Positions 3,169 to 63,769 of a stretch of 64,000 nt of DNA are shown piece after piece. The stretch's first letter is position 1; each line of letters starts with the position of its first letter. The notes under the pieces were generated by a model. The model did no database searches and was not told the DNA's origin. It worked only from the letters and a program-made list of their open reading frames with translations. The translations under genes were made by a program, and so were the position numbers. This stretch comes from Podarcis vaucheri (Eukaryota): NCBI GenBank assembly GCA_965113315.1, contig OZ220363.1, one strand, 5' to 3'.

Positions 3169-3650
3169 TTATGAATGCATCATGGACTCAAATTCATCAA
3201 TTCTCTGTTTAGTGTTTCCTTTCCGGATCTTCCGGTAAGATATTGTATTGTATCGAGAATAACTGTGCCTGGAGATATCATTTTTCTTCACCAAGCTCGG
3301 CTGCTCAGCAGGTTTCTCAGTCTGAGAGTTACAGCTGGCACTGGCAGAAAGGACATCCTTGCTGCCGCTCTCCAGCCTCTTTTTATGTTTATCCTCATTG
3401 CTTTCCTTCTGCATTATTTCTTCAGTGCCATCGAAATCTTCCTCTGCCATGGTTTCATTTTCTTCTAGTTGCGTTTCCTCTTTCATTGGCTCCTTGGGTT
3501 CACTCAGCTCCGCCTCTTCCTGTTCCTCCTCCACCACCACCTCATTAGTGCTGTAGACTTCTTCAGTCTGGGGTTCCTCCATCTTTCTTTCTTCCATCTT
3601 AGCTACTTTATGGTCTATAGTGCTCACAGGATGCTTCTCCTCGCAAAAGC
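3169..3650 (-). CDS. ERMN: Ermin (juxtanodin), last coding exon 3 with C-terminal ERM-type actin-binding motif
   Basis: Acceptor tttgttacag at 3651; phase 1; reads [15 protein letters not shown]...[39 protein letters not shown], matching the ermin C-terminus; expected synteny with CYTIP. Confidence 0.97.
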
Positions 3651-6600
3651 CTGTAACAAATAACAGTGGGGTTACAGTGCAGTTGAGCTAGGGTAAAAGT
3701 ATGGTGGCAAGGAGGCTGAGATGCAAACCTGGGAAATCCCTTGTTTAAAGTTTGCCGTTACCTCAGTAGGTGGCCCATGGGCATCCACTGTCTCTCAGCC
3801 CTACTCACCACCCACCTGCTATTTAAGACTAATAATACTGATGGGGTTGGCTTGAGGAATACTGAGATAATATATGTGGAAGCAGAATCAGAAGAGGTTT
3901 TGTCTTTGTAAAAACTGAAGTACCAGTGCGCATATTTTGATTAAAAAAAAATTAGCGGGTGCCAGTACAAAATGGCTGCAACGGGCAGCAAAAAAAAAAG
4001 AGGTGATGGTACTTTGGACCAGTGAGTACTGTCACAAAAAAGCAACAACAACAATATTGTATTATAGAATAATGAGATTGAATGGCCATGGTCATTCAAC
4101 ACCAGCATACTAAAGAGACTACCAGTGCCCTACAGATCAATCTAAGCATTCACAGGAGTGGGGTATGTTGTTCTCCCTTCTGCTTTTCACGGTTTTTCTG
4201 AAATATATAAAGTAACTGTGCCTACGATCCTATACACCAGGGCTGGGGGACCTGCTTGACTACATCTCCCATCATCCCTGATCATGCTTGGCTGGGGGTG
4301 ATGGGAGTTTATAAGCAAATGGACTAGAGACCCCATGCACTCTTCTCCACCATCCTTACCACCCTATTTTTCAACACTACTTCTAAGGAGGCCCAGTGAA
4401 GTGACTTGAATCCTGAAGCATGAGCTCTCTAGCAATATGCTTGCACTAACAAATTGTTAGTGAGGCATCCATAAAAGGGAAAGAGGGACACAGGAAGGGC
4501 AGGGGTTTACCAGAAATGGATCAAAATAAATAGGAACTGTCCCCGGAGCAGATAGTCTTATCATCATTATTTTGCAAAAATTTATAACCATCTAATTTTC
4601 CCATTCTACCACCACCACACAAAAATTAGCAAGATAACTGAGGTGTAACATACAGCGCTTGAAAGCCTTGAAATAAATATTTACTAAATGTGGCACGGAT
4701 TGCTATATTTTCTTGATTCAAAGTGCAACTAATTGTCTGCAAACAGCCACTTTTCTCAACCATCTTATTAGGGTAATATGCCTGGAATATCTGGTCAGTA
4801 GGGGGATTCTGAGAGCTCAGCAGGTAGAGTCTGGTATCTTTTTGACCGGTCAGGAGGTGGTACCATAGGAGAGCAGCCTAGTTTGATACTGGCTTACTCA
4901 GCAAAATACCTGATATAGACTGACCACCTATGCATTCCCAACAAATAGAAATGCACCCCCACCCAATAAAAGGACAAAAGATGATACGGATTTGTATGAA
5001 ATAGGCTTATGCTAATTTATATGTTCAGGTGCACATTTAGAAATTACTATAATCGAAACAGAAGCGCATTACACAGTGGGAAAGACTGTGATGACGTGAC
5101 CTGTCTTGCCTGCTCAGTCTCCTGTTCTGGTGGTAACTGTTGATGGGCAAATGCTCTCCCTTCTTATGGCTCTTAACCTTGAAACAAGATTTAAACCAAG
5201 CAGCCTTTCAAACCCAGGACTGTCCTCTGCAAGTAGGACACATGGTCACTCTATCCTAATATCTAACTGGGCAAGCATACTGAATAAGCAGCAGACTATC
5301 CAACTCTTGGTTGGGCCTAGTAGTGTTACAGTGGCTTCAGTCCTTCCTGGAGAATCGGCCTCAGAAGGTGGTACTGAGAAGCTTATTTTCCACCCACTGG
5401 CCAGTAGGCTATGGGGTACCTGCTGGGAAAAGTCATCTAGAGGTTTGAGTCACAGCAACATCAGCATGCAGGTGACAGTCATTTCTACCTCTTGTTTCCA
5501 ACTACTTGAAATTATTGAAAAGTGTGTGTGTGCACCCTACTGAAGTGCAGTGTGGCTTACTAGATAGCTCAATGGTAGGATAGCCAGAGAAAGACATAGT
5601 GTCCCATTAAATTGTCTACAGCAGGACCAGGGAATCTGTGACCATCCCAATGTTGTTGGACTCTAACTCCCATCAGCCCAAGCCAACATGGCCAATGGTC
5701 AGGAATGATGGGAGTTGTGGTCCAAGAACACCTGGAAGGTCACAGGTTCCCCATCCCTGGCCTAGAGTCCAGACTGAATGAGTAAACACTTACATCTGGC
5801 TGTGATTAAAGGAATGCCATATTGAAGATAACTATGCTAGGCCTTCTATTGTAGCTTCTTTCAAGATTTGGAGTATTTTGCCAAAGTCATTTTATAAAAG
5901 TTCAGTGCACTTCTGTAAGCACACGCTGATAAAATAGCATCACTTTGTGCCCCTCTGTGTGGCACTGGATATTGATGGCTTTTGACATGTAGTTAAAGTG
6001 GATCTAAATGTATGGAATGACTTGCCAACTGTTACGCAAAATCCAAATAACCAGTGTTAATGTGTTGTCAAGATTGTGAAATCGCACACTTAGCAGGCAT
6101 AAAGCTATAAAAACAAAAAAGCCTTCTCTTATCAAACTTGATTCAACCTGAACTATTGGGTCACATTTCTACAAGCTTCCTGCATGGATGTTCAAGGTGA
6201 GAAGGGGTATCAAAAGCCCTTCCTAAAATAGTCACCAGAACATAGGCATACATGCAGCTTCCTGATACTCCTGGAGAAAATATTTAAAGGTGGAAGGAAC
6301 CATAACCCACTTTAGGAGAGACATGGTAATTCAGTACCATCCTGTTTCACTTGTAATTTTCAAATAAGGCAGGCATCTATTTAAATTAATAGGAGTACCC
6401 AATGTGGTTTCAGTTGTGGCACTATACAATCCTATGCACACTTGTTAGGGAGCAAGTCTCACTGAACTTAACGGGAGCTATCTCCACATAAACATGTGCA
6501 GGGCTGAGCTGTATGACTAGCAGGAATGTCGCAACACATGGAGAGCCACATAAGAAATGATGTTAGCAAAATTTGCCAGATTATTCTCTGGATGAAGAAG

Positions 6601-7494: not shown

Positions 7495-7916
7495 CAGTGG
7501 CGTAGTGTGGGGGGTGCAGGGGGGCCGGCCGCACTGGGCGCAACATCTGGGGGGCATGCGCTCGCACTCGCAGCTCTCTGCCCCTACCTGGCTCACTCTC
7601 TCTCACTGCAGTGCTGGCTGTGCGAATCCAATCCGAGCCGCTGGGTTGCCGCCCACTGTGGAGGGGGTGGGTGCCAGGCGTGTGGTGCGGAGAGAGAGCG
7701 AGGGACTATCTGGGGGAGGGACAGTGCAGCGGCCGCCCAGTGCAGCGCTGAGCGCGGGAGAGAACCACACCAGACCAGACCAGGCAGCAGCAAGAAGAAG
7801 CTGGCAGCGGCGGCAGGTTAGGGGTTAGGGGGCGCAAATTACTTGCCTTGCCCCGGGTTAGGGGGCACAAATTACTTGCCTTGCCCCGGGTGCTGACAAC
7901 CCACGCTACGCCACTG
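7495..7916 (+). mobile_element. hAT-type MITE (long form) with TTAGGG-containing subrepeats
   Basis: TIR cagtggcgtag...ctacgccactg; 8-bp TSD cgggaaag/cgcgaaag. Confidence 0.88.
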
Positions 7917-9523
7917 CGCGAAAGCAAAGGTTCTGGTGGCTCTGGTTAAATATTATCTTACTTCCATTTTGTGTTTCTAACTACAGCCCTTGTTGACCTT
8001 TCTCCCCCATATAAGACATTGGTCCATGAAAGATGAGCAGAGTGGTTTTTGCTATCCTTGCTTAAATTGTTACACAAACTGCCACCAGGGAATCTAAAGT
8101 CAAGAGAAAGGTAAATGGCAAATGTACCTTATATACATAGGCATGAACTGTCTAAACATTTGCCTCCTTCTGAAATATAAACTTTCTTAACAGAGCTGTG
8201 CCTATGCTAAGGAAACTGAGGGGTGCAGGGAGTATCCTCAAATAGAAGATAATGCACACCAGTTCAATACAAGTATGTACCTCACTCTGTTTAAATTTCT
8301 CTGCATAGTTAACAACTTCATGTGGGATTTTCCAGAAGATCACAGCTGAATTCTGATTAACAATCGAGAGAATAACCTGAATCAGACAATTCCTTCACAC
8401 AGGTCTGTGTGCGCCTGCCTACCAAACGATGCAACTTTGGTTGGAATGTAGAATTCAGTTTCAGTCCCTACCAGTGATCATCATCACTGCCCAAGCTGAC
8501 CATACTGACCATCTGTTAGAAGCTGTGTGCAGAAAAGCAAATAGGATAGGTATCCATGCCCAAAGCCCCAGAAAAAGGAAACCAAATGTGCATCACACTC
8601 CATGGGATTCAATCCATCATATATATGTTTAGAAGCCTGTCGTCCCTTGTTTGTTGACAGCGATGGTGTTTGCTCATTAAGTGGAAGCTCATGGGCAGCC
8701 AGACCACTTGCATGAATGATTTCAAACCAGCCATAAAAGTTATGTATCATAGAAGACCATTTAACCATGTAGAGTATATATATCTTGTCCCTATGCATGA
8801 AATTTTGGCCACTCACTTTGCAACATGCTGCAGTTGCTGCTGTGTCCAGCTTCACACATGCAAAAGCAGCTGCATCATCGCAGCAAGTTGGAAGATATTG
8901 CAAGAGGCTAGGCTGCAGTTTCCATTATTAGCAGTTGCCACAGGTGGGAAGTGCCACACTCTACTGCAAGTGAAGTTATTACCTTAATTATCATTTCTAA
9001 GGCCACAGTAGGGTCCAGATTTTTGTTTATTTGATTTGGTTTTTTTTACATTCCCTCATCTCCACAGCAAGCTATGGCACCACACAATCCAAGGATCATG
9101 AGTGACTGAGACTATATATAACGTTCTAGAAACTGCAAAAACTAAGCAAGAGCAGAACTTGGGTTGTCCATGAAACATTGACCATTCAGCCTCCACACAG
9201 GTGTTTGTAATATAAGAGGGTTATTAAACTGGAAGATAATAGGGTTCCTTAAGCAGAGACCTAAACACAGGTCTGCTGCAGGGACTTCCCCCTAATCTAA
9301 GGGAAGAAAAGGGAGAGCATTATCTGAATGTGGGGCTGTGTTTAAACAGGACACAGTTAATTCACTGTGCCTGAACAGTACCTTAAATAGGAGACTACTG
9401 GTTACCCCCGATTCAGACTTTGTTTATTGCAGTATAGTCCCTTAACAGGGCTAGCCAAAGCCATTTTGCTTTCTGAGACAAAGGACAAAATGGCACCCTC
9501 CCCCATTCTACAAGTAGAAGATG

Positions 9524-11674: not shown

Positions 11675-12399
11675 CTTTAGAAGATACAAGACAGTGTAAA
11701 ATTGACATCTCCTACAAAGTGTTTAGTGATTACAGCGGCAATTACTAATCTCTTCAGCCATATAGTGCAGCTTAAACCTTTCTCCCTGGAGTGATCTTTT
11801 CCCATTAGATTTTGATCTAGAGCCACTTGCAGCAGAAAATATGTGCCACAGCAATCAATGGACCGACTTCCAGTGAAATGGAATGGAATGCCTTCCCCTC
11901 CATTTTTCTTTTTAGGGAGGTACAGCAAACACTTAGAAGCAAATTCCATTGAAAGTTGTGCACAATCCAGCCAAAGTTAAAGTGCATCGATTTCAAAGAG
12001 AGAATGCAACACATGCTTAAATCTCTCTTGCTTTTAATTCTCATTCATTTCACATTTCTCCCATTCAGGAGAATTAAAAGCACTTAACTTTGGCTAGATC
12101 GTGTTTAGAACTAGATCCACATTTGCTTTTTTAAAAAATGTATATCCATATCAATAATGGGACAGATCTTTTTTCTTCTTTTTTTTTGAGGGTCAGAGAA
12201 AATTTCAGAAAGTGTCAGCCACTGTTACACATTCAGCACAAAGGATTTACAATCTTACAGACAGAAGTAAAAAGAACGCTTTAAGAAAAACATTTAAAAC
12301 ATATTTCTCAAAAAATAAAAAGATCTCAATATAATAAAGCATCTCACATCATTCCCAAGACAAAAAGGGTGGGGGGGGATGCATAAACTGGCATTTTAC

Positions 12400-12643
12400 C
12401 TTGAAGTTCCTTTATCCCAACTGAAACTTCGTATGCTGTGCTCTTTGCTAAATGTTTGCCTCCTCCTCGGTTTCCTTGTGCAAGTGGGGAACCAGGAATA
12501 GGCTCTGCGGTTTCGTAAGGAAATATCTCGACAGAATTTGCAATTTGATCAATAATATCAATGACCTGGAGCTGAGGTTTTTCAGAGGGCACGTTCCGAT
12601 TGTATTCAGACATGCTGGTTGGAACCTGGACATCTTCTGTCAT
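12400..12643 (-). CDS. ERMN: Ermin coding exon 1
   Basis: ATG at 12643 (MTEDVQVPTSMSEYNRNVPSEK, similar to mammalian MTDVPATFTQAECNGDKPPE); donor gtaaaa at 12399; 244 nt, phase 1; joined CDS 807 nt = 268 aa + stop. Confidence 0.88.
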
Positions 12644-15600
12644 GATTCCTGCAGTATCCAAGAGGTTCCTTGCGGATATGTGTCCAGAGATGATCTGGTA
12701 TCCCGGAATCGCTGCAGAAATCAAACCATCCACCACTATCCCTCCCCCACCAAATAGATAGATATATTGAAGAGTCAACAAGCTTTCCGTCCTCCTGAAG
12801 TTGTTGCAGCCAAGCAGGGAATAATGTCAGGATTTGCCTTGGCTTTGTCATAGGTCCCTTTCCAAGAGGCTTGTCCAATCAGCACTTTTCTTGTCACTTA
12901 GAGCCTTTCCCCGTTGCATAATAAAATGCACCATGTCAATTTACATAAACAAACAATCTACAAGCAACAAAGCTTTTTGTGCTGGCATGCAGGAGTGGGG
13001 CTTTCAGCATGTCAGCCTGGCAGTAATAAACAGAGATTGTTGTCCTCGTTGTCATAAATGGCCCTTTGTATGCCAGCCTTGTAACAGGAGTGGCGATTGT
13101 TCTAAATCTTTAATCCACACCAAGTGACTACCTTGAGTCACATTAGCTGTGAGTTAACCAGCTTAACATTCCCAAACAGGTTAAATGTTCTGCGTAAACC
13201 TTGACCCGCTCTTGTTCGGACAAAGAGTCCATTGGAAACTTGTTGAAAGTGGGAGGTGAGGAAGGTAGGATTGCATGCAATTGTGTCACTTTCAGCTATC
13301 CTCCTTCCAGATAGCTCTGTGTTCCATCTGCTGCCATCACACACCCACACCCACACCCACGGGCCCAATTATTTCCATTTTTAACCTGTCCTTGCCCACA
13401 AAAGCTCATAGGTTGTTTTTCTTTTACTGCTTTAAAACAATTGATTTAAATTATATGCTAAAAGGATGGGCACCCAATGCTCCGAAGCAGAGTGATCTTT
13501 TAAGAATGACTTTAAATAAGAACTTTTGTCTGGTCCAGTTTTTCTTACTGGTTCAAGCATCACAGTTTGGCAAACGGCAACTGTCTTTACCATAGGAAGA
13601 GCTCTGGAGGATCAGTCCAAAGCCCAGCCTTTTATTCTCACAATGACCACAGTAATAAATTATTATTAATTTGTACCCAGCCACTCTGGGCAGCTGCCAA
13701 CAGCTATGAAAACATAATAAAACATCAAACATTAAAAACTGCCCTATACAGTAATGAGTGCTATTTTTCTAGAAAAAGAGGTGTCAGAACTCACCATGAA
13801 TGCCTCCCTTGTTCTCTTATGATGAACGCAATGGCGCCCAGTAATGTATACTGCAAACTGTATCTATCCAGGCAAAGCTTGCTACACTCTGCGCATGGAG
13901 GGAGGGGGGGTGTTGTGAGGGGTGAGGGCATTACTAACCAATCTATGTGCCATATGATTCATCTTGTGGGGGCCACAGGAACCCCATGCCAGCCATGGCA
14001 TAATCATCTGAAAATAGTTAATCTCATTTGCCCATGTTTATTTCATGTCCGTCTTTGTTTGTATCCCACTTTTCCTCCCAAAAGAAGCTGGCAATTATGA
14101 AGAAAACAAAATAATGCCAAAACCCAATAAAATTATCAAACAGGACATGAGTCCCAGTGCCTGGCATTAGGAGGCATATGGCCTCTGACTTTGGAGGTAG
14201 AATGCAGCCGTCAAGAGTAGTTGCCTTACCCTCCATGAATTGATATCCTGATATTTGATGGCTTTATCCTCCATAGACTATCCAATCCTCTTTATTTTAT
14301 TTATTTTAATTTCCTTCATTAATTAAATTTCTTTCCCACCCTTCCACCCAAAGGAGTCCAGGGTGGCAAAAGCCATCGTTACATTCTGTGGGTGGAAATT
14401 ACATAGTTTAATTATGTGAAGTTCTTTCTCTTGCCTGTCCTGAATCTTTCAATGTTCAATTTCAGGTTCTACTATTATAAGAGCAGTGCTGGATTAAACC
14501 CTGTGGAGGCCCCTAAGCAGTCAAAATCTTGGAGTGGGGCGGGGCGCCTTGTGTGCACGCTCTAGTAGGATAACATTGAACTAAGAAAGCTTGATAGTAA
14601 TTTACTTCCAGGATCAAATCAATATTATTTTGATCCATTGTTGCAGGCTCCTAAAAGGCATGGGGCCCATAGGCCGCTGCCTGCTCTGCCTATTTGGTAA
14701 TCTGGCACTGTATGAGAGGGAGAAAAACTCTAATCACTTTCTCCATACTGTGCTTAATTTTATATATCTGTATCATGCCCACTATCCGCTCGATTGCCTT
14801 TTTTCCGAACTAAAAAGCCCTAATTGTTGTACCCTTTCCTCACATGAGGGGGAAAAGATGGCTGCCCCCCACAACACCACATGTGAGAAGCCACCTTTTC
14901 CCTGTACTGCCCTTACCAACAACGTTATGTGATCTCATTTCCAGGGACATTTCCAGGCCTGTTTTGCAAGCACATGGCAGTTTTGGTCAACTTTTTAACT
15001 TTAAGGAAGTTAAATAAATAAGAAAATTGTGATTTCAAGCTTCCTGAATCAGCTGTACTACTGAATTCTTCTTGGGGGAACCTGGTAGCACAACTAGTCA
15101 CTGTCCAAAGTGGAGGTTGAATTGAAGTGGCTTGGATTTTCCTTTGTACACAACTTGTCATGCTACAAAGGAAAAACGGATCACCTGATGTCATGGATCA
15201 CCTGATGGTTCAGAGGGGGGCAGGCAGCATATCGAGAAATCTGGGAACCCAGGATCTGACCTGTCAGTCAGATCCAATTCACCCCTGGTTTAGAATCATC
15301 TCATATGACTATAATTTTATGAGAGAAAGCAACAACACCCCAACCATTGACACTACAGAGGTGCAAAAAATATAAATCAGCTTCTAAAAGATCTCATTTG
15401 AATGTTCTCTAATTTAGACCAGTGCACATGGTAGAGCCATATAAGCATAACTCCCTATCTTATGGGCTGCTAGGGTGCAGAGGATTGTTCTTCTTAGCAA
15501 AAACCATGAACAGCACATAATGTGTATAGAAACCCTCATATCCCTGGAACAGAATTGCAAAGCTAGGGAGCAACATACCTACATGCCCTTTCTCAATGGA

Positions 15601-16595: not shown

Positions 16596-16837
16596 CAGTG
16601 GTACCTCGGGTTAAGTACTTAATTCATTCCGGAGGTCTGTTCTTAACCTGAAACTGTTCTTAACCTGAAGCACCACTTTAGCTAATGGGGCCTCCTGCTG
16701 CTGCCGCACCACCGGAGCAAGATTTCTGTTCTTATCCTGAAGCAAAGTTCTTAACCTGAAGCACTGTTTCTGGGTTAGCGGAGTCTGTAACCTGAAGCGT
16801 ATGTAACCTGAAACGTATGTATCCCAAGGCACCACCG
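16596..16837 (+). mobile_element. Tc1/mariner (Tigger-like) MITE
   Basis: TA TSD, TIR cagtggtacctc; related copies at 30193-30431, 56196-56424 and a partial inverted copy at about 17365-17517. Confidence 0.85.
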
Positions 16838-16948
16838 TATAGCAATACTTTCACATTATATCCTAGGGATTGTCACATGTTACATTCAGTGTTGTTGAAT
16901 TATATTTCTATCACACATTTTCTTTCAATGATCTCAGTTTGATTAGTA

Positions 16949-17290
16949 CAGTGGTGCCCCGCAAGACGAATGCCTCGCAAGACGGAAAACTCGCAAGATG
17001 AACGAATTTTCCGTTTTGGAGGTGCTTCGCAAAACGAATTTCCTATGGGCTTGCTTTGCAAGACGACAATGTCTTGCGAGTGCCTGCTGGTTTTTTCCCT
17101 CCCCCCTTTTTTCTAAGCCGCTAAGACGCTTATCAGCTGATCCGATCAGCAGATAAGCCGCTAAAAGCCGCTAATAGCACTAATAGCGCTAATCCGCTAA
17201 TCCGTCAATGGGCTTGCTTCGCAAGACGAAAAGACCACTAGACAAAGAGAATCACAGAACGGATTCTTTTCGTCTTGCGAGGCACCACTG
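16949..17290. mobile_element. Tc1/mariner MITE, second family
   Basis: TA TSD; TIR cagtggtgccccgcaagacgaa / ttcgtcttgcgaggcaccactg. Confidence 0.85.
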
Positions 17291-18128
17291 TATATGATCT
17301 GTGAACCTATGTACACAAATAGTTTTGTGCAGATTAACAGGTGTACATTCACACAAGCATGTGAACTTTGCTTCAGGTTGAGAACAGAAATCGTGCTCCG
17401 ACAGCCCAGCAGCAGCAGGAGGCCCCATTAGCTAAAGTGGTGCTTCAGGTTAAGAACAGTTTCAGGTAAAGTACGGACCTCTGGAACGAATTAAGTACTT
17501 AACCCGAGGTACCACTGTATATCTGTGGAGTTTAAGAAGCATACATTGTACAAAAGTCAAACAGCATATTTTTTAAGAGAGAAAAACTGCTGGGTTGATG
17601 TGTATATATAGAGAAGCCTTCACTATCTCCTTCACTGGCCCAGCATCTAAAGCCACATAAGACAATAACTTGCTGTTTTATATGGCATCCTTTCTACTAG
17701 GGGCAAAGCATATACTGTACACACTTTTAAATTTTACTTGCTTTTATTTTAACCTTCCTGTTTGGCTCAATTCCAGCACTGGGAAATGGGAGCAAAGCCC
17801 CGGTGGCTTCTGATGGTCCCTCAGCTCACATACTTAAATCAAGAGTTGCCATCACTGTCATAAAGATGAGCTGGGAGGAGGTGACTCATTATCGCTATGG
17901 CTGTTCATGAGAGTCAAATGAGCTGTGAAGGTACAGAATGAGCCAGACTTTTACTTGATAAAAGCAGTCATGATGAGAAGGAAATCCTTTCTCCCCAAGT
18001 AGGGAGAAGCCCTACGTATTCTGCGACCCACATATTCAAGGAACTGCCTATCTCTTTGGCAGCCCATGTGCCTGTTGTGGTCAGAAAATCAGGCCCTGCA
18101 CCATATAACATCCGGATAATAGTATGGC

Positions 18129-18283
18129 AGAATAATAGAATAATAGCATTGCAGAGTTGGAAGGGGCCACGAGGGTCATCCAGTCCAACCCCTTTCAATG
18201 CAGGAATTTTTCACCCAATGTAGGGTTTGATCCCACAACCCTGGGATTAAGAGTCTCATGCTCTACCGACTGAGCTATCCAGC
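18129..18283 (-). mobile_element. tRNA-Lys(CTT)-derived SINE with CR1-type 3' tail
   Basis: Head GGATAGCTCAGTCGGTAGAGCATGAGACTCTTAATC..., then ggggttggactggatgacc...ccttccaactct and an ATTCT-like tail. Confidence 0.8.
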
Positions 18284-18471: not shown

Positions 18472-18735
18472 TGTTATGTACTGAAGTTCTCACCCTGGGC
18501 CAGCAGGGGGATATTGTGGATAGTTTTCACTCAGGTCCACATATGCAAATAAGGGATCGAAAGTGACGTTCAGTGATTCGATAGTTACAGAAAATTGTTA
18601 CTGTTGCATTCTAGTGGAGCTCTATATAAGCAGGCTGGCTGAACCCTTCAGTTCAGTTCAGTTCTGGCCTGTGAATAAACAAGAGCTGTTTGAAGAACTG
18701 CTGTGTCGTCTGACATGTTCACCCACAACTTAACA
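18472..18735 (+). mobile_element. Solo LTR (Gypsy-like), 264 bp
   Basis: TGTTA...TAACA termini, 5-bp TSD gtttt, TATA (18623) then AATAAA (18674). Confidence 0.85.
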
Positions 18736-21535: not shown

Positions 21536-21677
21536 CAGTGGCGTAGCGTGGGTTGTCAGCACCCGGGGCAAGGCAAGTAATTTGCGCCCCCTAACCCGTG
21601 GATTTGCGCACCCTAACCCCCAGATGTTGCGCCCGGTGCGGCCGAGCCCCCCCTGCACCCCCCACGCTACGCCACTG
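21536..21677 (-). mobile_element. Same MITE family, short form
   Basis: 17-bp TIR cagtggcgtagcgtggg; perfect 8-bp TSD acaaagga. Confidence 0.9.
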
Positions 21678-27202: not shown

Positions 27203-27551
27203 GGGACGTGGGTGGCGCTGTGGGTTAAACCACAGAGCTAGGACTTGCTGATCAGAAGGTTGGTGGTTTGAATCCCCGTGATGGGGTGAGCTCCTGTTGC
27301 TCGGTCCCTGCTCCTGCCAACCTAGCAGTTCGAAAGCACGTCAAAGTGCAAGTAGATAAATAGGTACCGCTCTGGTGGGAAGGTAAACGGCGTTTCTGTG
27401 CGCTGCTCTGGTTCACCAGAAGCGGCTTAGTCATGCTGGCCACATGACCCAGAAGCTGTATGCCGGCTCCTTCGGCCAATAAAGTGAGATGAGCGCCGCA
27501 ACCCCAGACTTGTCCACGACTGGACCTAATGGTCAGGGGTCCCTTTACCTT
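27203..27551 (+). mobile_element. Sauria SINE (Squam1), full length
   Basis: tRNA head with A/B boxes, body ending in tttaccttt; degenerate TSD taaacatactcag / taaacgtgctcag. Confidence 0.9.
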
Positions 27552-27631
27552 TAAACGTGCTCAGAATTGCAGCCTTGTTCATTGATATATTTTGCTCCTC
27601 CATTGTCTATCCTTCCTATCTTCCTTTAGAG

Positions 27632-27816
27632 CATTTCAGGGGCCTAATCTAGCCTACCGGTTGATTTAAACAGGCCCCAGTGGCAATATATGTCCCGGGG
27701 GGAAATCCTAAAAGCTCAACAACCTCAACCCTAAAAAAGCTCAAGAACTTTGGTCAGCCCTCATGCATGTTCACTTCATCAAATCTGACTCTTTGGAAAA
27801 AGTTTGGGCACCCCTG
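27632..27816. mobile_element. hAT MITE remnant
   Basis: 8-bp direct repeat ctttagag on both sides; right end gtttgggcacccctg; left TIR degraded. Confidence 0.6.
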
Positions 27817-27848
27817 CTTTAGAGAGTTCAGAATTTCCAGGACATTTG

Positions 27849-28396
27849 CATAGGCGCCGACTCCATGGGGCCTGAGGGGGCTCGAGCCCCCTCAAAAAAT
27901 TTTTTTGGGGGGCTCAGCCCCCCCAATAATCTCAGGCGCCCTTCCAGCAGAGCGCCGCCGCCGCCCCCCGCCTCCTCCCCACCTGCGCCCTCGCCAGCCA
28001 GCCAGCCAGCCACGGGCCCTAGTCGGAGAGCCCCGGCCGTCCCCCGCGAGATTAGGGAATCCCCGGGGGCGGGGGCTCCTGCCTCGCTGCTTCGCAGCAC
28101 CACCGCCACGGCCAAGGCACTGCCGGGGGGAATTTCCTTCCTCCTGGCGGTTTCAGCGGTTTAGGGCCGGAGCGGAGGGGGCTCGCCCTCTCTTCTCCAG
28201 CTAGCCCCACGTTTCCCGCATATCAGCTGTTCCGGAGCTGATTAATAGGCGCAGCACGCTCTCCCCTATTTGCTCACGAGGGGGCGGCGCCACTTTATTT
28301 GCATATTCATGAGCTTATTTGCATATTCATGAGCTTATTTACATTTCACGAGCTTTCCCGGGCCCCCCCAATATTTTTTATAAGTCCGCGTCCCTG
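27849..28396. mobile_element. CpG-rich hAT-type non-autonomous element
   Basis: Perfect 8-bp TSD gacatttg (27841-27848, 28397-28404); imperfect TIR cataggcgccgact / agtccgcgtccctg. Confidence 0.85.
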
Positions 28397-29661
28397 GACA
28401 TTTGTCATCTAGGTATAGGCCATGACCAGACGTATTCAACTCCAGAGGTGGAGCTATGCATGCCTTTTTAAAACCAGCCACTTAGAAATCAGAATCTCAA
28501 AACTCCATTTCCCCCCCAATGTGGACCTTGAAAATTTAGTATTTTATGTTTTTTAGCATGTTTGAGTTTTTAACCCCTCCCACCCCCTGCCCCTGGAACA
28601 ACTTCTGATGTCCATATCCCAATATTTACCATTTGGTGACCACCTTTCAGTTTGCTTGTTGAAAAGCTAATATCAACCACTTCATTCTTCAAAACTGATA
28701 TTCAAATATATACACATGAAATGCAATTTGAACTATATTTACAAAAGGGGGGGCTGTATTAAAGCACTTGGTCTTTTTTTCTTCTGGAACACACACCGTA
28801 CATTAAAGAACAGGAACAGGCAGTGTAGTTACATCTGAAGGCTATAGCTCTATGAACCCAGGTCATTAATGTTGCCAAATCTTCTTTGCACATACATGCA
28901 AGAAATAATACTAAATATACTTGTATGCTGGTTCAAAAGATTTCATCAATTCTCACGCTTATAATAGATTTGCTTTGCTTCCTAAGGCTCCTCAAATCAC
29001 AGGAATTGCTGTACTCCTGCAAACCAGTACACACATATACTTCTGGTTCATGGGTTACTTTTTCCCTGTGATCAGAAAAGGACAAGAAAACAAGCATGGA
29101 CAGCTGCGAACCCTTAATAGCTGTGTGAAGGGAATGTGCTGGTAGAGCCAAACTTGTGAATGGGCCTTTGTTTGATTACTTAGATCATAAATATGTCTAA
29201 TTTTCTTGTTAGCAACTAGTAAGACTTGGGAAAGGACCATCATGACACTTAGTTCCTAGCAGTTGCCATGTCTGACCCACAATGTACGAATGTCATTTGA
29301 AAACAGCCATCCACCCTCCTGCCCTTCACCCCCAAATGCCATGTATACATATATAATATCAATGGGGATGTCTTGAAACTATTTCAGGGGGAAACAAGTC
29401 TCTCAGTCTCAAGTGTTCCCTTCACCTCCATTGACTTTTCACTGAATGAAGTGCAGGCACAACATTAGGGATGGGGGAATCTTTGGCCTTTAGATGTTGT
29501 TGGACTCCAGTTCCCATCAGCCTCTGCCAGCATGGCCAATGATCAGGGATGATGGGAATTGTATTTTGTCCCTGACGTAGGACCTGCACTTCTGTTTGAA
29601 AGCTACAGGTTGTTGCCCAGATATTCACTGAAGGATGCAGTACCTAGCCCACTTCAAGTCG

Positions 29662-30128
29662 TCAGACACGACTTTCTTCCTCTTCTACAGCTCGGTAGAG
29701 TCCAGGGATGAATTTCAGCAGCCTCTTCCGAACACTTCCCTTCCGGCTTTTCCGCGGGAGAGTCCCAAATATGTTTGAGACGTTGCTTCCATCCCAAGAG
29801 GGAGATGCTGACCCACTGCTCGTCACACTGATGCTTCTGTGCCTTCTCAGCGAACTCTTCACAAAGGCAACATCACTGTCCCTCGAGAGGAAGCAGTCGT
29901 CTTCTGTGCTTGACTGCCGGCTAAAAGTCCCACTAGCAGGATCCTCCGAATCGTAGGCTTGGTAGAAGCTGTCCTCACTGTCCACAGTCATTGAGCTCAG
30001 GCGGCTTAAACAGCTGCTTTCGCTGGGAAATCGGGGTTTGTTTGCCAAAGCTGACCCTGATCGAGCGTAATCACCAAATAAGTTAGATTCTTCCAGTCCC
30101 ACAAATTCAAGTGGTGAGCGCATTTCCC
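29662..30128 (-). CDS. CYTIP: Cytohesin-1 interacting protein, exon 8 (last coding)
   Basis: Acceptor ttcctag at 30129; [18 protein letters not shown]...[35 protein letters not shown] matches the CYTIP C-terminus. Confidence 0.97.
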
Positions 30129-30192
30129 CTAGGAAAGAGACAGAAGAGAACATGCATTAATTACCTCAAAATGCACAAGCTGGAATAATATA

Positions 30193-38358: not shown

Positions 38359-38976
38359 CTGTGATAATTCCAAAACGAATATAATTAGGAACTGTGTATT
38401 CATTGTTCCCTCTGAATCCTAAAAAAAAAAAAAGCAAATGGGAGAAGCAGTAAACCAGGAGTGGGAAACCTCAGGCCCAGGGTCTGACTGTGGCTGTCCA
38501 CACATCCATGTCCAGGCCTCAAGACTCTGTCCAGGCCAGAGGTGCCAACTTGAATAACATATGGGGGGGGGAGGAAAGGTAAGCCCTGCCACACATAATC
38601 ACCTGATACAGTGCATGCACACCATTTGAACGGCAGTGCCCATCAACTGGGGGGGGGGCGGCCCTCTGCCCCTAGAGGTTGGTTCCTCTGGTCCAGGCCA
38701 AACTGCTCACTGACTTCACTCTGTGCCATCTTGTAGTGATTTTATCTGACTAGAATGTATCCTTAAATTCTGGTGCCTCTTGCTTACATGCATGGCGAGA
38801 GGGGTGGGTGTGTCTGTGTCTATGTCCACACACACACACACACACACACACTACTGGTATGTGGCCCCTGGAAATTTGCCTGTGAGGAAGTGTGGTCCTC
38901 AGGCTGAATATTTACCCCATCCCCGCAGTGAACTTTGTTTGGGTGAACTTTAGGGTGGGGGGGAAAGGCTAGTTAC

Positions 38977-44642: not shown

Positions 44643-44801
44643 CTGCTTGTAGTCCCTAGACAACGTGTCTATTGAATTTGTGAATGCCTGGCTTCTTTTG
44701 TTGTCCAGTGGTGGGTTACCAATTGGATCCAAGTATGGGGTGTAAACTGAGCCCACACAGTTGGCGTTGTGGTTCTGGTGAATGAGCCTCTTTAAGGACA
44801 T
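44643..44801 (-). CDS. CYTIP: CYTIP exon 1 (coding part, 159 nt)
   Basis: ATG at 44801, MSLKRLIHQN...DTLSRDYKQ then donor gtatgt; joined CDS 1065 nt = 354 aa + stop. Confidence 0.92.
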
Positions 44802-45844: not shown

Positions 45845-46347
45845 CAGCAATGTCCAACCGTGGACCGTGATTGACAGGTAGATTGCCCTGGTGCTCCTGG
45901 TCAATCGCGCCCCGCCCCACCTCCTGCACTATGTCCCATCAGTGGCGTAGCATGGGGGTGCAGGGGGGGCCAGCCGCACCGGGTGCAACATCTGGGGGTT
46001 AGGGTTAGGGGGCGCAAATCCACGGGTTAGGGGGCGCAAATTACTTGCCTTGCCCCGGGTGCTGACAACCCACGCTACGCCACTGTGTCCCATCACTGTC
46101 ACTGGTGAAAGGGCGGGTAAGCTGAATAACTCTTGCCCCAGTCCCGAAAAGAAGCTCAAGAACTCTTGTCATCCCCTCCTAAAAACAGCTCAACAACTCT
46201 GCTCAATCCTTCCCCAAAAAAGCTCAACAGCTCTGCTCACTCCCCCCATAAAATAGCTCCACAACTATGGTCGATGACAGTGGGTAGATCACTGCCAGTT
46301 TTTTATACTGGGAGTAGATTGCAGTCTCTAGAGAGTTGGCATGCCTG
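45845..46347. mobile_element. hAT-Charlie-like non-autonomous element hosting the nested MITE
   Basis: Imperfect TIR cagcaatgtccaac / gttggcatgcctg; TSD cgctagac/ctctagac (NTCTAGAN-type target); internal aagctcaacaact repeats. Confidence 0.75.
45940..46085 (+). mobile_element. Same MITE family, short form, nested in another hAT element
   Basis: TIRs; perfect 8-bp TSD tgtcccat. Confidence 0.9.
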
Positions 46348-55076: not shown

Positions 55077-55181
55077 GGCTACGGCCATACTGATCTCATC
55101 TGATCTCGGAAGCTAAGCAGGGTCAGGCCTGGTTAGTACTTGGATGGGAAACCGTCTAGGAATACCGGGTGCCATAGGCTT
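55077..55181 (+). pseudogene. 5S rRNA pseudogene with about 15-nt internal deletion
   Basis: Matches vertebrate 5S (CTACGGCCATAC...GATCTCGGAAGCTAAGCAGGGTC...TTAGTACTTGGATGGGA...GAATACCGGGTG...TAGGCTT) with several substitutions and no T-run terminator. Confidence 0.9.
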
Positions 55182-56488: not shown

Positions 56489-57621
56489 TGCTCTCACCAT
56501 AAGAAAAGCTGCTGTTTGCTCTCCATGCTAATTTATTATTGGATTTCAGAGAGACAGAGAGAAAGAGTGCGCACAAAGTAGAGCTCTGATGCTATGAGGC
56601 TTATCCTGGGACTCTCAGCTTTATTTATTCTCTTCAAAATAAATAGTTTACTCTGCTTAGGAAAGCATCTCAGTATGAATATAAACTGGCGGATGTACGA
56701 AACGTTTTAAACAGCTGCAAGTTCTAGTTGACCTTACAGGTGATAAATTGTCTGTTTCAGCCTATACTGTAGTTATGTGACCTGATGGCAAATTTCACTT
56801 TGTAATCATGTGTCTCTAATGCAGTTTGTAAAGGCTGCTGTTGAAGTGGTGCAAATGTGCTTTAATATTTATGGTGCGGATGTGACCTTGGTTCTGCCTA
56901 TCTTGGGAGAAGGAAGCTGTGTGAAGAAGATGGAGCATATTGGGCCAGAACACATGGAAAGGAGAGAGAGAGAGACCCGTTCGTTTCTTACCCCACTCCC
57001 CCTAATTAATGGGTGATAGAAGGGGGAGGCAGTAGTTAAAATAAAGAAGCGTCCACCTTCTCAGCCACAACAAAGGTTTCTATCCTCACCTGCATGACAG
57101 GCAGATAACACACTGCAGAGTGCCATCTCTAGGCACTAACACATCACCATCAAGACCTTTCTCCTAAATGTTTAGGCATTCATTGAAATCTCCACCCATT
57201 GATTCTAACACCGTCCCCCTGGAACAACAGAGAGGAAGTCCACTCCATTCTTCTGTGTTGACAGCTCTCGGTGGTGGCTGGTGGCTAGTGGGGCAGAAAG
57301 CTAGTAGACCAACAGTAGGCAGAGCCAATGAAGGCAGGCAGGTAGGGAAAGGGCTCCAACTGAAGGCAGGCTGTGGTTGAGGAGCAGTGTCCCATTTGTC
57401 TTAATGGACCAGCCTCCGCTGACAGTTCTTCAGATAGTTGTCTCCTCCTTAACCTTGTCTTCCCCACCCCAGGCTAAATATATTTAGCTCTTTCAACTTT
57501 TCCTCTGAGGATGTGGTTCCTTCCTTCCTTCCTTCCTTCCTTCCTTCTTTTCTTCTTTTGTATTTTCCAAAACAGGAACACAAACCATAGTTAAGCTCCC
57601 CATTCCTCTGTCCCACTTAGA

Positions 57622-57852
57622 ACTTCGTACCATTTATTTATTTATTTATTTACAGCTATTAGCCCATAAAATATATACAAGCCTTTACAAACTGCATTAG
57701 AGACACATGATTACAAAGTGAAATTTACCATCAGGTCACATAACTACAGTATAGGCTGAAACAGACAATTTATCACCTGTAAGGTCAACTAGAACTTGCA
57801 GCTGTTTAAAACGTTTCGTACATCTGCCAGTTTATATTCATACTTCGTACCA
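57622..57852 (-). mobile_element. Insertion of a LINE-like 3' tip with (TAAA)5 tail plus a 165-bp inverted copy of 56672-56836, bounded by an 11-bp TSD
   Basis: TSD acttcgtacca at 57622-57632 and 57842-57852; copy differs from donor at 2 positions. Confidence 0.85.
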
Positions 57853-62226: not shown

Positions 62227-63393
62227 CTAAAGCTTTCGTGTCTTGACCTCTTGAGCTTGTGAAGAGTTTTTCTGAGAAGATGGCTGTGCTGCATTTAGTT
62301 GTGCTCTGGCTTGGCTTCGTGTATAGGGGCGAGCTGTGGTTTTGTGCCTTGTGCCAGCCAGATCTGTGTAGGGATTGCAGGGGGGTGCAGCATCCGGAGG
62401 TGCCACTATAGTTTGGCTACTGGATGGAGTCTGTAATATGTCTGTGGAGAGGGTCTGGGTTTGGGTCTGGTGTGGTTGATTGGTGACGGCGTTCTGTGTG
62501 CCTCTGGTTCTGGTGTCGGTTTTTGTGGGGAGGGCTAATTTCCAGATGTCTGGCAGGCGGGACGTGTCGTCACGCTTGTTCATGTTGTGAGGGTGTTTCT
62601 CTATCTCGATGGCTTCCATGATTATTCTCTTGTGGTGATGTTCCATGTTAAAGAGCAATTTGGAATCTGCAAAATTAATTTCGTGTCCTGTTTCTTTCAT
62701 GTGTTGGAAAAGAGAGGAAGTTTTTTCTTCTTTTTTGACGGCATTCTTGTGTTCTGCGATACGTGCATTTATTCGTCTGTTTGTTTGTCCAATGTACGTG
62801 GCTGGGCAGACTTTGCAGGGTATTTCATAGACCCCTTGGTTTTCCAGCTGGATTTTGTCTTTTGGATTTCTGAGGATATTGGCTATTTTTTGGTTGGTGC
62901 AGAAGGCTGTTTTGATATTGTGTTTATGGAGGATTTTGCTGATTTTGTCTGTAGTGCCCTTGATATAAGGAAGGAGGGCCATGCCATTGTTTTCTTCTGT
63001 GTCTTGGTTTTTGGGGGGTGTTTCTTTTTGGATTAGCTTCGTAACCCTGTTTTTCTGGTATCCATTGGCGATTAACACATTTGAGAGATTCTGTAACTCA
63101 GTTGTCAAGTGGTCTTTGTCAGCCAGGCGTTTGGTTCTGGAGATGAGAGTCTTGGCTACGGAGTTTATTTGTGCAGGGTGGTGGTGTGATTGTGCATGTA
63201 AGTAGCGGTTGGTGTGTGTTTTTTTCCGGTAGATAGTGTGTCCTAGGGAGCCATCAGGTTTTTTGTAGATTAGGACGTCAAGAAAGGGGAGTTGGTTGTT
63301 GTCTTCTATTTCCATAGTGAATTGTATTTTGGGGTGTAGGCTGTTGAGATGTGTGAGGAAGCTATCTAGTTTTTCTTTCCCGTGTGGCCAAAT
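62227..63393 (-). pseudogene. Penelope-like ORF remnant: RT end/thumb + GIY-YIG endonuclease, stop-free but truncated just after the expected catalytic Y-x-D-D motif
   Basis: IWPHG...IQFTMEIE...LPFLDVLI...YRKKTHTNRYL...GVYEIPCKVCPATYIGQT...RIAEH...MEAIEI...NMN. Confidence 0.9.
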
Positions 63394-63769
63394 TACACAG
63401 ATCTGGCTGGCACAAGGCACAAAACCACAGCTCGCCCCTATACACGAAGCCAAGCCAGAGCACAACTAAATGCAGCACAGCCATCTTCTCAGAAAAACTC
63501 TTCACAAGCTCAAGAGGTCAAGACACGAAAGCTTTAGCAACTAATCTACACTTAATGACCCACCCAGTGGTATTCAGAATATCACTCATGAAATCACCCA
63601 AGATATCCCTCAAGTAATTAAGGAACAAAAGAAGAAAAGGCACACTAATCTAGGAACTTCCTCTCTGCCCAGAACGTTGGAGGCTATACACCACACCCCT
63701 CAACAGTATTTATAGGAACTCAAACACCAGATTCTGCTCTGTTCCAGTAACAAGAAGCCGAAAGCACCA

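Follow-up and report, generated by a model that had tools for sequence, protein, structure and literature searches.

A non-autonomous hAT transposon beyond the CYTIP stop codon in Podarcis vaucheri carries a tandem heptamer-octamer array

Elements of the hAT type are recognized by an 8-bp TSD and short TIRs (PMC3942097, excerpt; sources marked in this way are cited for the passages available). Work on Hermes describes hAT elements as dependent on 100-200 bp at either end, as using short subterminal repeats for binding and as sometimes asymmetric; in Hermes itself, motifs of 4 bp are repeated in this way at both ends (bioRxiv 10.1101/2022.09.16.508221, excerpt). Transposable elements are also known to hold binding sites for host factors, and up to 20% of the transcription factor sites of human and mouse have been placed in them (PMC7786948, excerpt). 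In VH promoters, a heptamer lies upstream of an octamer and a pyrimidine-rich region lies upstream of the heptamer (PMC8950363, excerpt). All POU domains bind the octamer, and that of VH promoters has been described as read in the fashion of the MORE, the more palindromic Oct recognition element (PMC1935007, excerpt). OCT1, OCT2, Oct6, Brn2 and Oct4 are found on the MORE, where binding is cooperative (PMC11873960 and PMC9943670, excerpts). According to a further report, Oct dimers on the MORE do not bring in OBF1, the coactivator of B cells (PMC5286379, excerpt).

In this work, we analysed a 64-kb window, that is, the whole stretch of P. vaucheri DNA under study, in which a hAT element inserted just past the CYTIP stop holds an array with the heptamer upstream of the octamer, as in VH promoters. 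The array differs from those promoters in that it is tandem, lies in a transposon and has neither a leader ATG exon nor a V segment, and two of its four units have TCACGAG in place of the heptamer. A previous sequence-only reading of this DNA had proposed a lymphocyte-type regulatory cassette. As discussed below, the motif is a strong but generic POU site, and what remains of the transposon's own promoter is the explanation that we prefer.

The insertion and its surroundings

The element occupies positions 27849 to 28396 (548 bp, GC 63%) and is flanked by two identical copies (8/8) of the TSD GACATTTG, at 27841-27848 and 28397-28404. Its TIRs, CATAGGCGCCGACT on the plus strand (27849-27862) and CAGGGACGCGGACT on the minus strand (28383-28396), are 14 bp long and complementary at 10 of the 14 positions, which is imperfect and falls inside the hAT range of 10-25 bp. 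The 8-bp TSD, the short TIRs and the absence of any protein family in the four frames scanned make it a non-autonomous hAT. When the first 11 nt of each TIR are set against the Tip100 TIR CAGGGGCGGAG (PMC12511174, excerpt), they agree at 8/11 on the right and 7/11 on the left, a suggestive likeness that makes the element probably Tip100-like. The CpG observed/expected ratio is 0.77, as opposed to 0.27 across the window, and the TSD-bounded, CpG-rich hAT-type element of the sequence-only reading is confirmed on all these points.

None of the four longest open frames of the element matched a Pfam domain, the Ig domain included, and these scans together with six-frame translation found no transposase coding capacity in the 548 bp. 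No transposase was seen among the long ORFs of the window either, and Rfam gave no match inside 27849-28396. As a single strand, the element folds better than its shuffles (z=-3.5), which we attribute to the end palindromes and from which no RNA function is drawn. A subterminal palindromic pair, GGGGGCT..AGCCCCC, forms a hairpin at 27873-27925 and is a candidate transposase-binding end structure. The interior (27930-28290) is GC-rich (70%) and shows little CpG decay, with a TpG observed/expected ratio of 0.45 (0.52 over the whole element). Other young elements of the window are equally CpG-rich (ratios of 0.57-1.17), so that the CpG richness of the focal element signals youth and not an island. 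It is thus a fairly young cut-and-paste insertion. By chance, the junction between the left TSD and the start of the element (27844-27851) makes one more perfect octamer.

A relative of the element lies in a CYTIP intron. This 154-bp hAT (38537-38690), with an 8-bp TSD of its own, GTCCAGGC, has ends of the same two types as the focal element (24 of 35 positions agree at the right end, 17 of 30 at the left), the binomial P of the right-end match (~6e-8 per position) being inflated by a run of G. An A-rich and a G-rich tract inward of the right TIR are common to the two. The interior of the relative is different and contains no octamer, heptamer or kB match and no array, which means that not every relative carries the motif set. 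A second copy of the focal interior was not found in the window, where BLAST returned only the element's own palindrome. Among seven candidates with CA..TG ends and an exact 8-bp TSD, five stood as elements, the focal one included, and those at 16621 and 56708 were dropped as palindrome artefacts. With five hAT-like elements in 64 kb, a landing near CYTIP needs no explanation.

The surroundings are crowded with other mobile DNA, including a 350-bp SINE at about 27203-27553, with further copies in the window, and a short repeat in the CYTIP 3' region. A second hAT family is represented by three members with CAGTGGCGTAG ends (7495-7918, 21536-21677 and 45940-46085). The two short ones match the Tip100 TIR at 9/11, and the long one has a GC-rich interior with a 33-bp tandem duplication near one end, so that the focal element is not the only one with slippage close to an end. 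Upstream of CYTIP, a foldback-like element of about 1.1 kb (56691-57825) has very long terminal inverted repeats. At 16601-17520 there is a non-autonomous element with a second one nested inside it (about 16948-17290, CpG ratio 1.17), both presumably Tc1/mariner-like; an apparent interior module shared by the focal element and the Tc1-like element at 17127 (16/18) was discarded as chance (E=1.2). A 412-aa open frame on the minus strand (62227-63465) gave a weak GIY-YIG match, below the cut-off (E=4e-4), and we take it to be consistent with a Penelope-like retroelement. The Rfam matches to 5S rRNA (55077-55180, 54 bits) and to a partial tRNA (18220-18277, 38.8 bits) are probably SINE heads or pseudogenes. 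Immediately to the left of the focal element, a remnant at 27670-27817 has AAAAGCTCAA(C/G)AAC repeats like those of a 34-bp tandem array at 46147-46266 and probably belongs to another repeat family.

Copies of the element were also sought in protein, prokaryotic and plasmid collections, none of which is a set of animal genomes. The translated-frame searches were meant to pick up copies included in gene models or assembled reads. In the protein databases, the frame across the array gave none of 15 candidates at E<=10 and a left-half frame none of 270 at E<=0.01. An exhaustive protein search returned three matches in 1.84 billion; two were tandem-repeat translations with no real likeness, and the third has 37 matched stretches. 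All these protein searches are weak negatives. A scan of 596 Gb of prokaryotic genomes with an 18-mer gave 23 single matches, against 17 expected at 50% GC and a range of 2-88 for 60-35% GC; not one of these matches reaches far past the pattern, and they were regarded as chance. The plasmid collection had no match to the 18-mer. In these collections and in the window, neither a parent element, a transposase gene, a transcript nor a second full copy was seen. The sequence ATTTGCATATTCATG had no match in literature text. In the part of the literature searched, which lies outside Repbase and Dfam, no 17-mer or POU array in a hAT element was found, and the family may already be named. The 17-mer described below is printed as a primer in PMC4219444 and as a test oligo in PMC3488415 (excerpts), neither of them about transposons. 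The octamer of PMC2803484 (excerpt) is irrelevant here, as it is merely a target site, and PMC10058329 (excerpt) covers other lacertid elements.

The tandem POU array and the kB matches

The array lies within about 45-130 bp of the right end and is composed of four units in the same orientation, with TATTTRC starting at 28267, 28296, 28316 and 28336, each followed by TCAYGAG (28274, 28307, 28327 and 28346). These are all the copies of the two motifs in the element. Units 1 (28295-28314) and 2 (28315-28334) are exact tandem duplicates of the 20-bp unit TTATTTGCATATTCATGAGC (20/20; TRF period 20, 3.1 copies, score 101), and they hold the 17-mer ATTTGCATATTCATGAG at 28297-28313 and 28317-28333. 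On the minus strand, the 17-mer reads CTCATGAATATGCAAAT, in which the heptamer CTCATGA stands 2 bp upstream of the octamer ATGCAAAT; this combination is exact in two of the four units. The degenerate unit 3 (28336-28352, minus strand) reads CTCGTGAAATGTAAATA and has no perfect octamer or heptamer, though it keeps the octamer-like ATGTAAAT; the third copy had been delimited as ATTTACATTTCACGAG, at 28337-28352. Unit 0 (28267-28280, plus strand) reads TATTTGC-TCACGAG, without the central four bases. The two exact copies and the degenerate third of the sequence-only reading are therefore present, and unit 0, which it had missed, makes four.

The 17-mer is identical (17/17) to a mouse VH186.2-promoter primer (PMC4219444, excerpt), which bears out its description as an IgH heptamer-octamer. 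Its chance expectation is 1.6-3e-5 per 64-kb window and it appeared in none of 20,000 shuffles of the element; the two exact copies come from one tandem slippage duplication and count as one event. The same DNA can also be compared with the MORE, ATGCATATGCAT. The core ATGAATATGCAA of the duplicated units is near-palindromic and matches it at 10 of 12 positions, a score that is not rare by itself, given that five other 12-mers of the window also reach 10/12. The crystallographic MORE probe also starts with CTCATG (PMC11873960, excerpt). The core differs from the MORE in being asymmetric and in keeping a perfect octamer, so that binding of a monomer would also be possible. The 17-mer, judged by its letters, is a strong generic POU site and a predicted MORE-type dimer site.

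Read inward on the minus strand, the right-end region presents the octamer-like site at 28344, the octamers at 28324 and 28304, a GC box at 28288 (28282-28288), the TATA-like TATTAA at 28247 (28242-28247) and a CpG-rich stretch with the kB matches. The TATTAA lies 49 bp downstream of the innermost octamer and points into the element; it is a weak match to a TATA box, a function that it may have had. The transposase promoter of a cut-and-paste element has the position and direction seen here for the array. The GC boxes reported by the sequence-only reading do exist, three in the element, but they show no excess over chance (2.0 expected, P=0.33) and were rejected as a meaningful signal. POU sites occur in other mobile-element promoters of this window, since an unrelated solo-LTR-like element at about 18472-18735 (to 18740; TG..CA ends, 5-bp TSD GTTTT) has an octamer at 18543, some 80 bp upstream of a TATA near 18623, together with a TGACGT also upstream of the TATA and an AATAAA near 18676.

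Both NF-kB sites claimed previously are present, GGGAATCCCC / GGGGATTCCC on both strands at 28055-28064 and GGGAATTTCC on the plus strand at 28128-28137, and a third, weaker consensus match that had been overlooked, GGGGCTCTCC, lies on the minus strand at 28025-28034. Three sites against 0.30 expected represent an excess of about 10-fold over shuffles, with an uncorrected P of ~0.01 (0.003-0.012) for a motif that was picked after being seen. At least two sites occurred in 5% of the element shuffles, and no kB match was found in the 10 other elements of the window that were scanned. The kB matches are mildly above chance, and a leftover promoter explains them only as incidental.

The CYTIP setting and the competing explanations

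CYTIP, a leukocyte gene, is on the minus strand, with its first coding exon starting at 44801. Its last coding exon (29662-30129, stop at 29662-29664) is 99% identical to the cytohesin-interacting protein of Podarcis raffonei. The gap between the element and the stop is 1,265 bp, in accordance with the distance of about 1.3 kb given before, and the start codon is 16.4 kb away. The element is also upstream of ERMN, an oligodendrocyte gene on the same strand as CYTIP, whose last exon lies at 3169-3687 on the minus strand (Pfam Ermin, E=5.7e-25). A minus-strand ORF at 12344-12826 was considered as the ERMN N-terminus from an apparent likeness; Pfam and Atlas gave it no support, and for this reason no position is claimed for the ERMN promoter.

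We consider that there is about an even chance that the array is what is left of a transposon promoter, recognized by POU factors that are either ubiquitous or proper to the germline or embryo, and that it is a passenger at this locus. The right-end 130 bp hold the tandem array, whose best unit would be a composite POU site in which a perfect octamer and a MORE-type dimer site overlap. The same DNA solution as that of mammalian VH promoters would have been reached by convergence on POU-dimer binding and not by Ig descent, and one unit was later doubled by slippage, as its 20/20 identity shows. The succession of POU array, GC box, TATA-like site and CpG-rich stretch, inward on the minus strand, would most simply be the remnant of the parent transposase promoter, from which broadly expressed Oct1 or germline/early-embryo POU factors would have driven transposase expression. 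In the focal copy such a promoter would have no gene to serve, and that copy is most likely a passenger, silenced or neutral, and not an enhancer of CYTIP kept by selection. Against this explanation stand the weakness of the TATA-like site and of the GC box, and the lack of the array in the relative at 38537-38690.

Three other explanations bear on the origin of the array. It is unlikely, though it deserves some weight, that the focal copy came by its exact IgH match through an accident, in which a family repeat TATTTRC..TCACGAG, with no POU role in the family, would have become TCATGAG by CpG deamination and then been duplicated by slippage. Both non-duplicated units (28274 and 28346) read TCACGAG, the TCATGAG units are identical duplicates that differ from it by C>T at a CpG, and chance alone would give 0.4-0.7 copies of the 17-mer in a genome taken to be 1.5 Gb. 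However, the little CpG decay of the element weighs somewhat against deamination, and the octamer-like sequence of unit 3 argues that octamer-like content predates the duplication. The sequence-only reading had itself offered as alternatives the parent transposon's promoter, which fits the anatomy best, and subterminal transposase-binding repeats, to which the POU match would be incidental. We hold the latter to be slightly less probable than an accident of the copy. Four units of TATTTRC and TCAYGAG in the same orientation near one end would suit hAT ends, which use such repeats and can be asymmetric, but the units are at the right end only, whereas the Hermes repeats are at both (bioRxiv 10.1101/2022.09.16.508221, excerpt). 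Moreover, the TSD-flanked relative has similar ends and none of the units, and for the binding of transposase the palindromes at 27873-27925 make the more convincing candidate. It is extremely unlikely that the element captured a fragment of a lizard IgH V promoter, in the manner of a Pack-type capture. The 2-bp spacing between heptamer and octamer is exactly that of the mouse VH primer, but the match is confined to the core (18/21 with flanks) and the unit is one of four in an array internal to the element. After the array no leader exon or V segment was found, the next ATG (28221) opening the six codons MRETWG before a stop, and no pyrimidine tract lies upstream of the heptamer, where the minus-strand flank is purine-rich (G and A).

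The remaining explanations concern the host. That the element is a lymphocyte Oct and NF-kB enhancer co-opted for CYTIP, of a family that spreads the module to immune genes, we regard as quite unlikely. In its favor are the 17/17 VH match in two copies, the low CpG decay, the lack of any octamer or kB match in the proximal 1 kb of CYTIP and, as the best support, the excess of the three kB matches. The perfect octamer can also be bound by a monomer (PMC11873960, excerpt), so that activity in B cells is possible, and there is a precedent in a rattlesnake hAT-Tip100 that overlaps venom-gene promoters and enhancers (PMC9248877, excerpt). On the other hand, MORE dimers are generic and reportedly leave OBF1 aside (PMC5286379, excerpt), and the other features of VH promoters are missing. 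The CYTIP start is 16.4 kb away and ERMN, too, has the element upstream of it; moreover, the relative found in the window does without the motifs, and CpG richness is typical of young elements. The lymphocyte-type cassette is therefore not supported, although with a perfect octamer and kB matches mildly above chance it is not refuted either. A stronger form of the idea, in which a lacertid hAT family would carry the heptamer-octamer array and NF-kB sites in its consensus, be active in lymphocytes or inducible by inflammation and seed immune genes including CYTIP, seems to us very improbable. It is also very unlikely that the poly(A) site of CYTIP is provided or displaced by the insertion, so that the 3' UTR would take in some of the element. 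At 28294-28299 on the minus strand, which is the sense strand of CYTIP, the end of unit 1 makes an AATAAA not remarked upon before. It is the first canonical hexamer past the stop, as the 1,265 bp in between contain no AATAAA or ATTAAA on that strand; a TATAAA variant also lies at 28377-28382. However, the sequence downstream is GC-rich and poor for this purpose, with no U/GU-rich element, and the variant hexamers AATACA (28755) and AATATA (28734) lie upstream in a U-rich context. An exapted immune enhancer is thus possible but unsupported, and the leftover promoter in an ordinary passenger is the best reading.

Comparison with known systems

If the family did seed immune genes, a DNA transposon would have independently reached the logic of immunoglobulin promoters and rewired lizard immunity, a case comparable to that of the rattlesnake venom genes, and an empty-site allele would be a natural experiment on CYTIP. 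If the leftover promoter is the right explanation, this is one more non-autonomous hAT with host transcription factor sites, which is common. Sites for transcription factors in transposons and the co-option of a squamate hAT-Tip100 are already known (PMC7786948 and PMC9248877, excerpts). In that event, the modest gain is a testable hint of a hAT family in reptiles whose transposase may be expressed from a tandem POU dimer site. The case also illustrates how one can be misled by an "immunoglobulin" motif that amounts to a strong POU site, of a kind to which many factors outside the immune system bind.

The squamate system to be compared is Cv1-hAT-Tip100 of the prairie rattlesnake, a hAT-Tip100 with transcription factor sites that was co-opted as promoter and enhancer (PMC9248877, excerpt). 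That case rests on chromatin data and on enrichment (8/11 promoters). The consensus stretch of Cv1-hAT-Tip100 is AT-rich and, compared by eye and unaligned, unlike the focal element, and in the searched part of the PMC9248877 supplement the octamer was not found in either orientation. As to structure, the focal element resembles MITEs of the Tip100 group in its 8-bp TSD, its short Tip100-like TIR, its size of 548 bp and in that no coding capacity was found. It departs from typical MITEs, which are AT-rich inside (PMC3942097, excerpt), in its GC-rich interior and imperfect TIR.

A further comparison concerns motif content. Modules of octamer, kB and GC box are carried by selfish elements, among them the SV40 enhancer and the LTRs of retroviruses. 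In contrast to these, the carrier here is the remnant of a cut-and-paste DNA transposon with no gene to drive, but the generic strong-promoter motif mix that it holds is the same.
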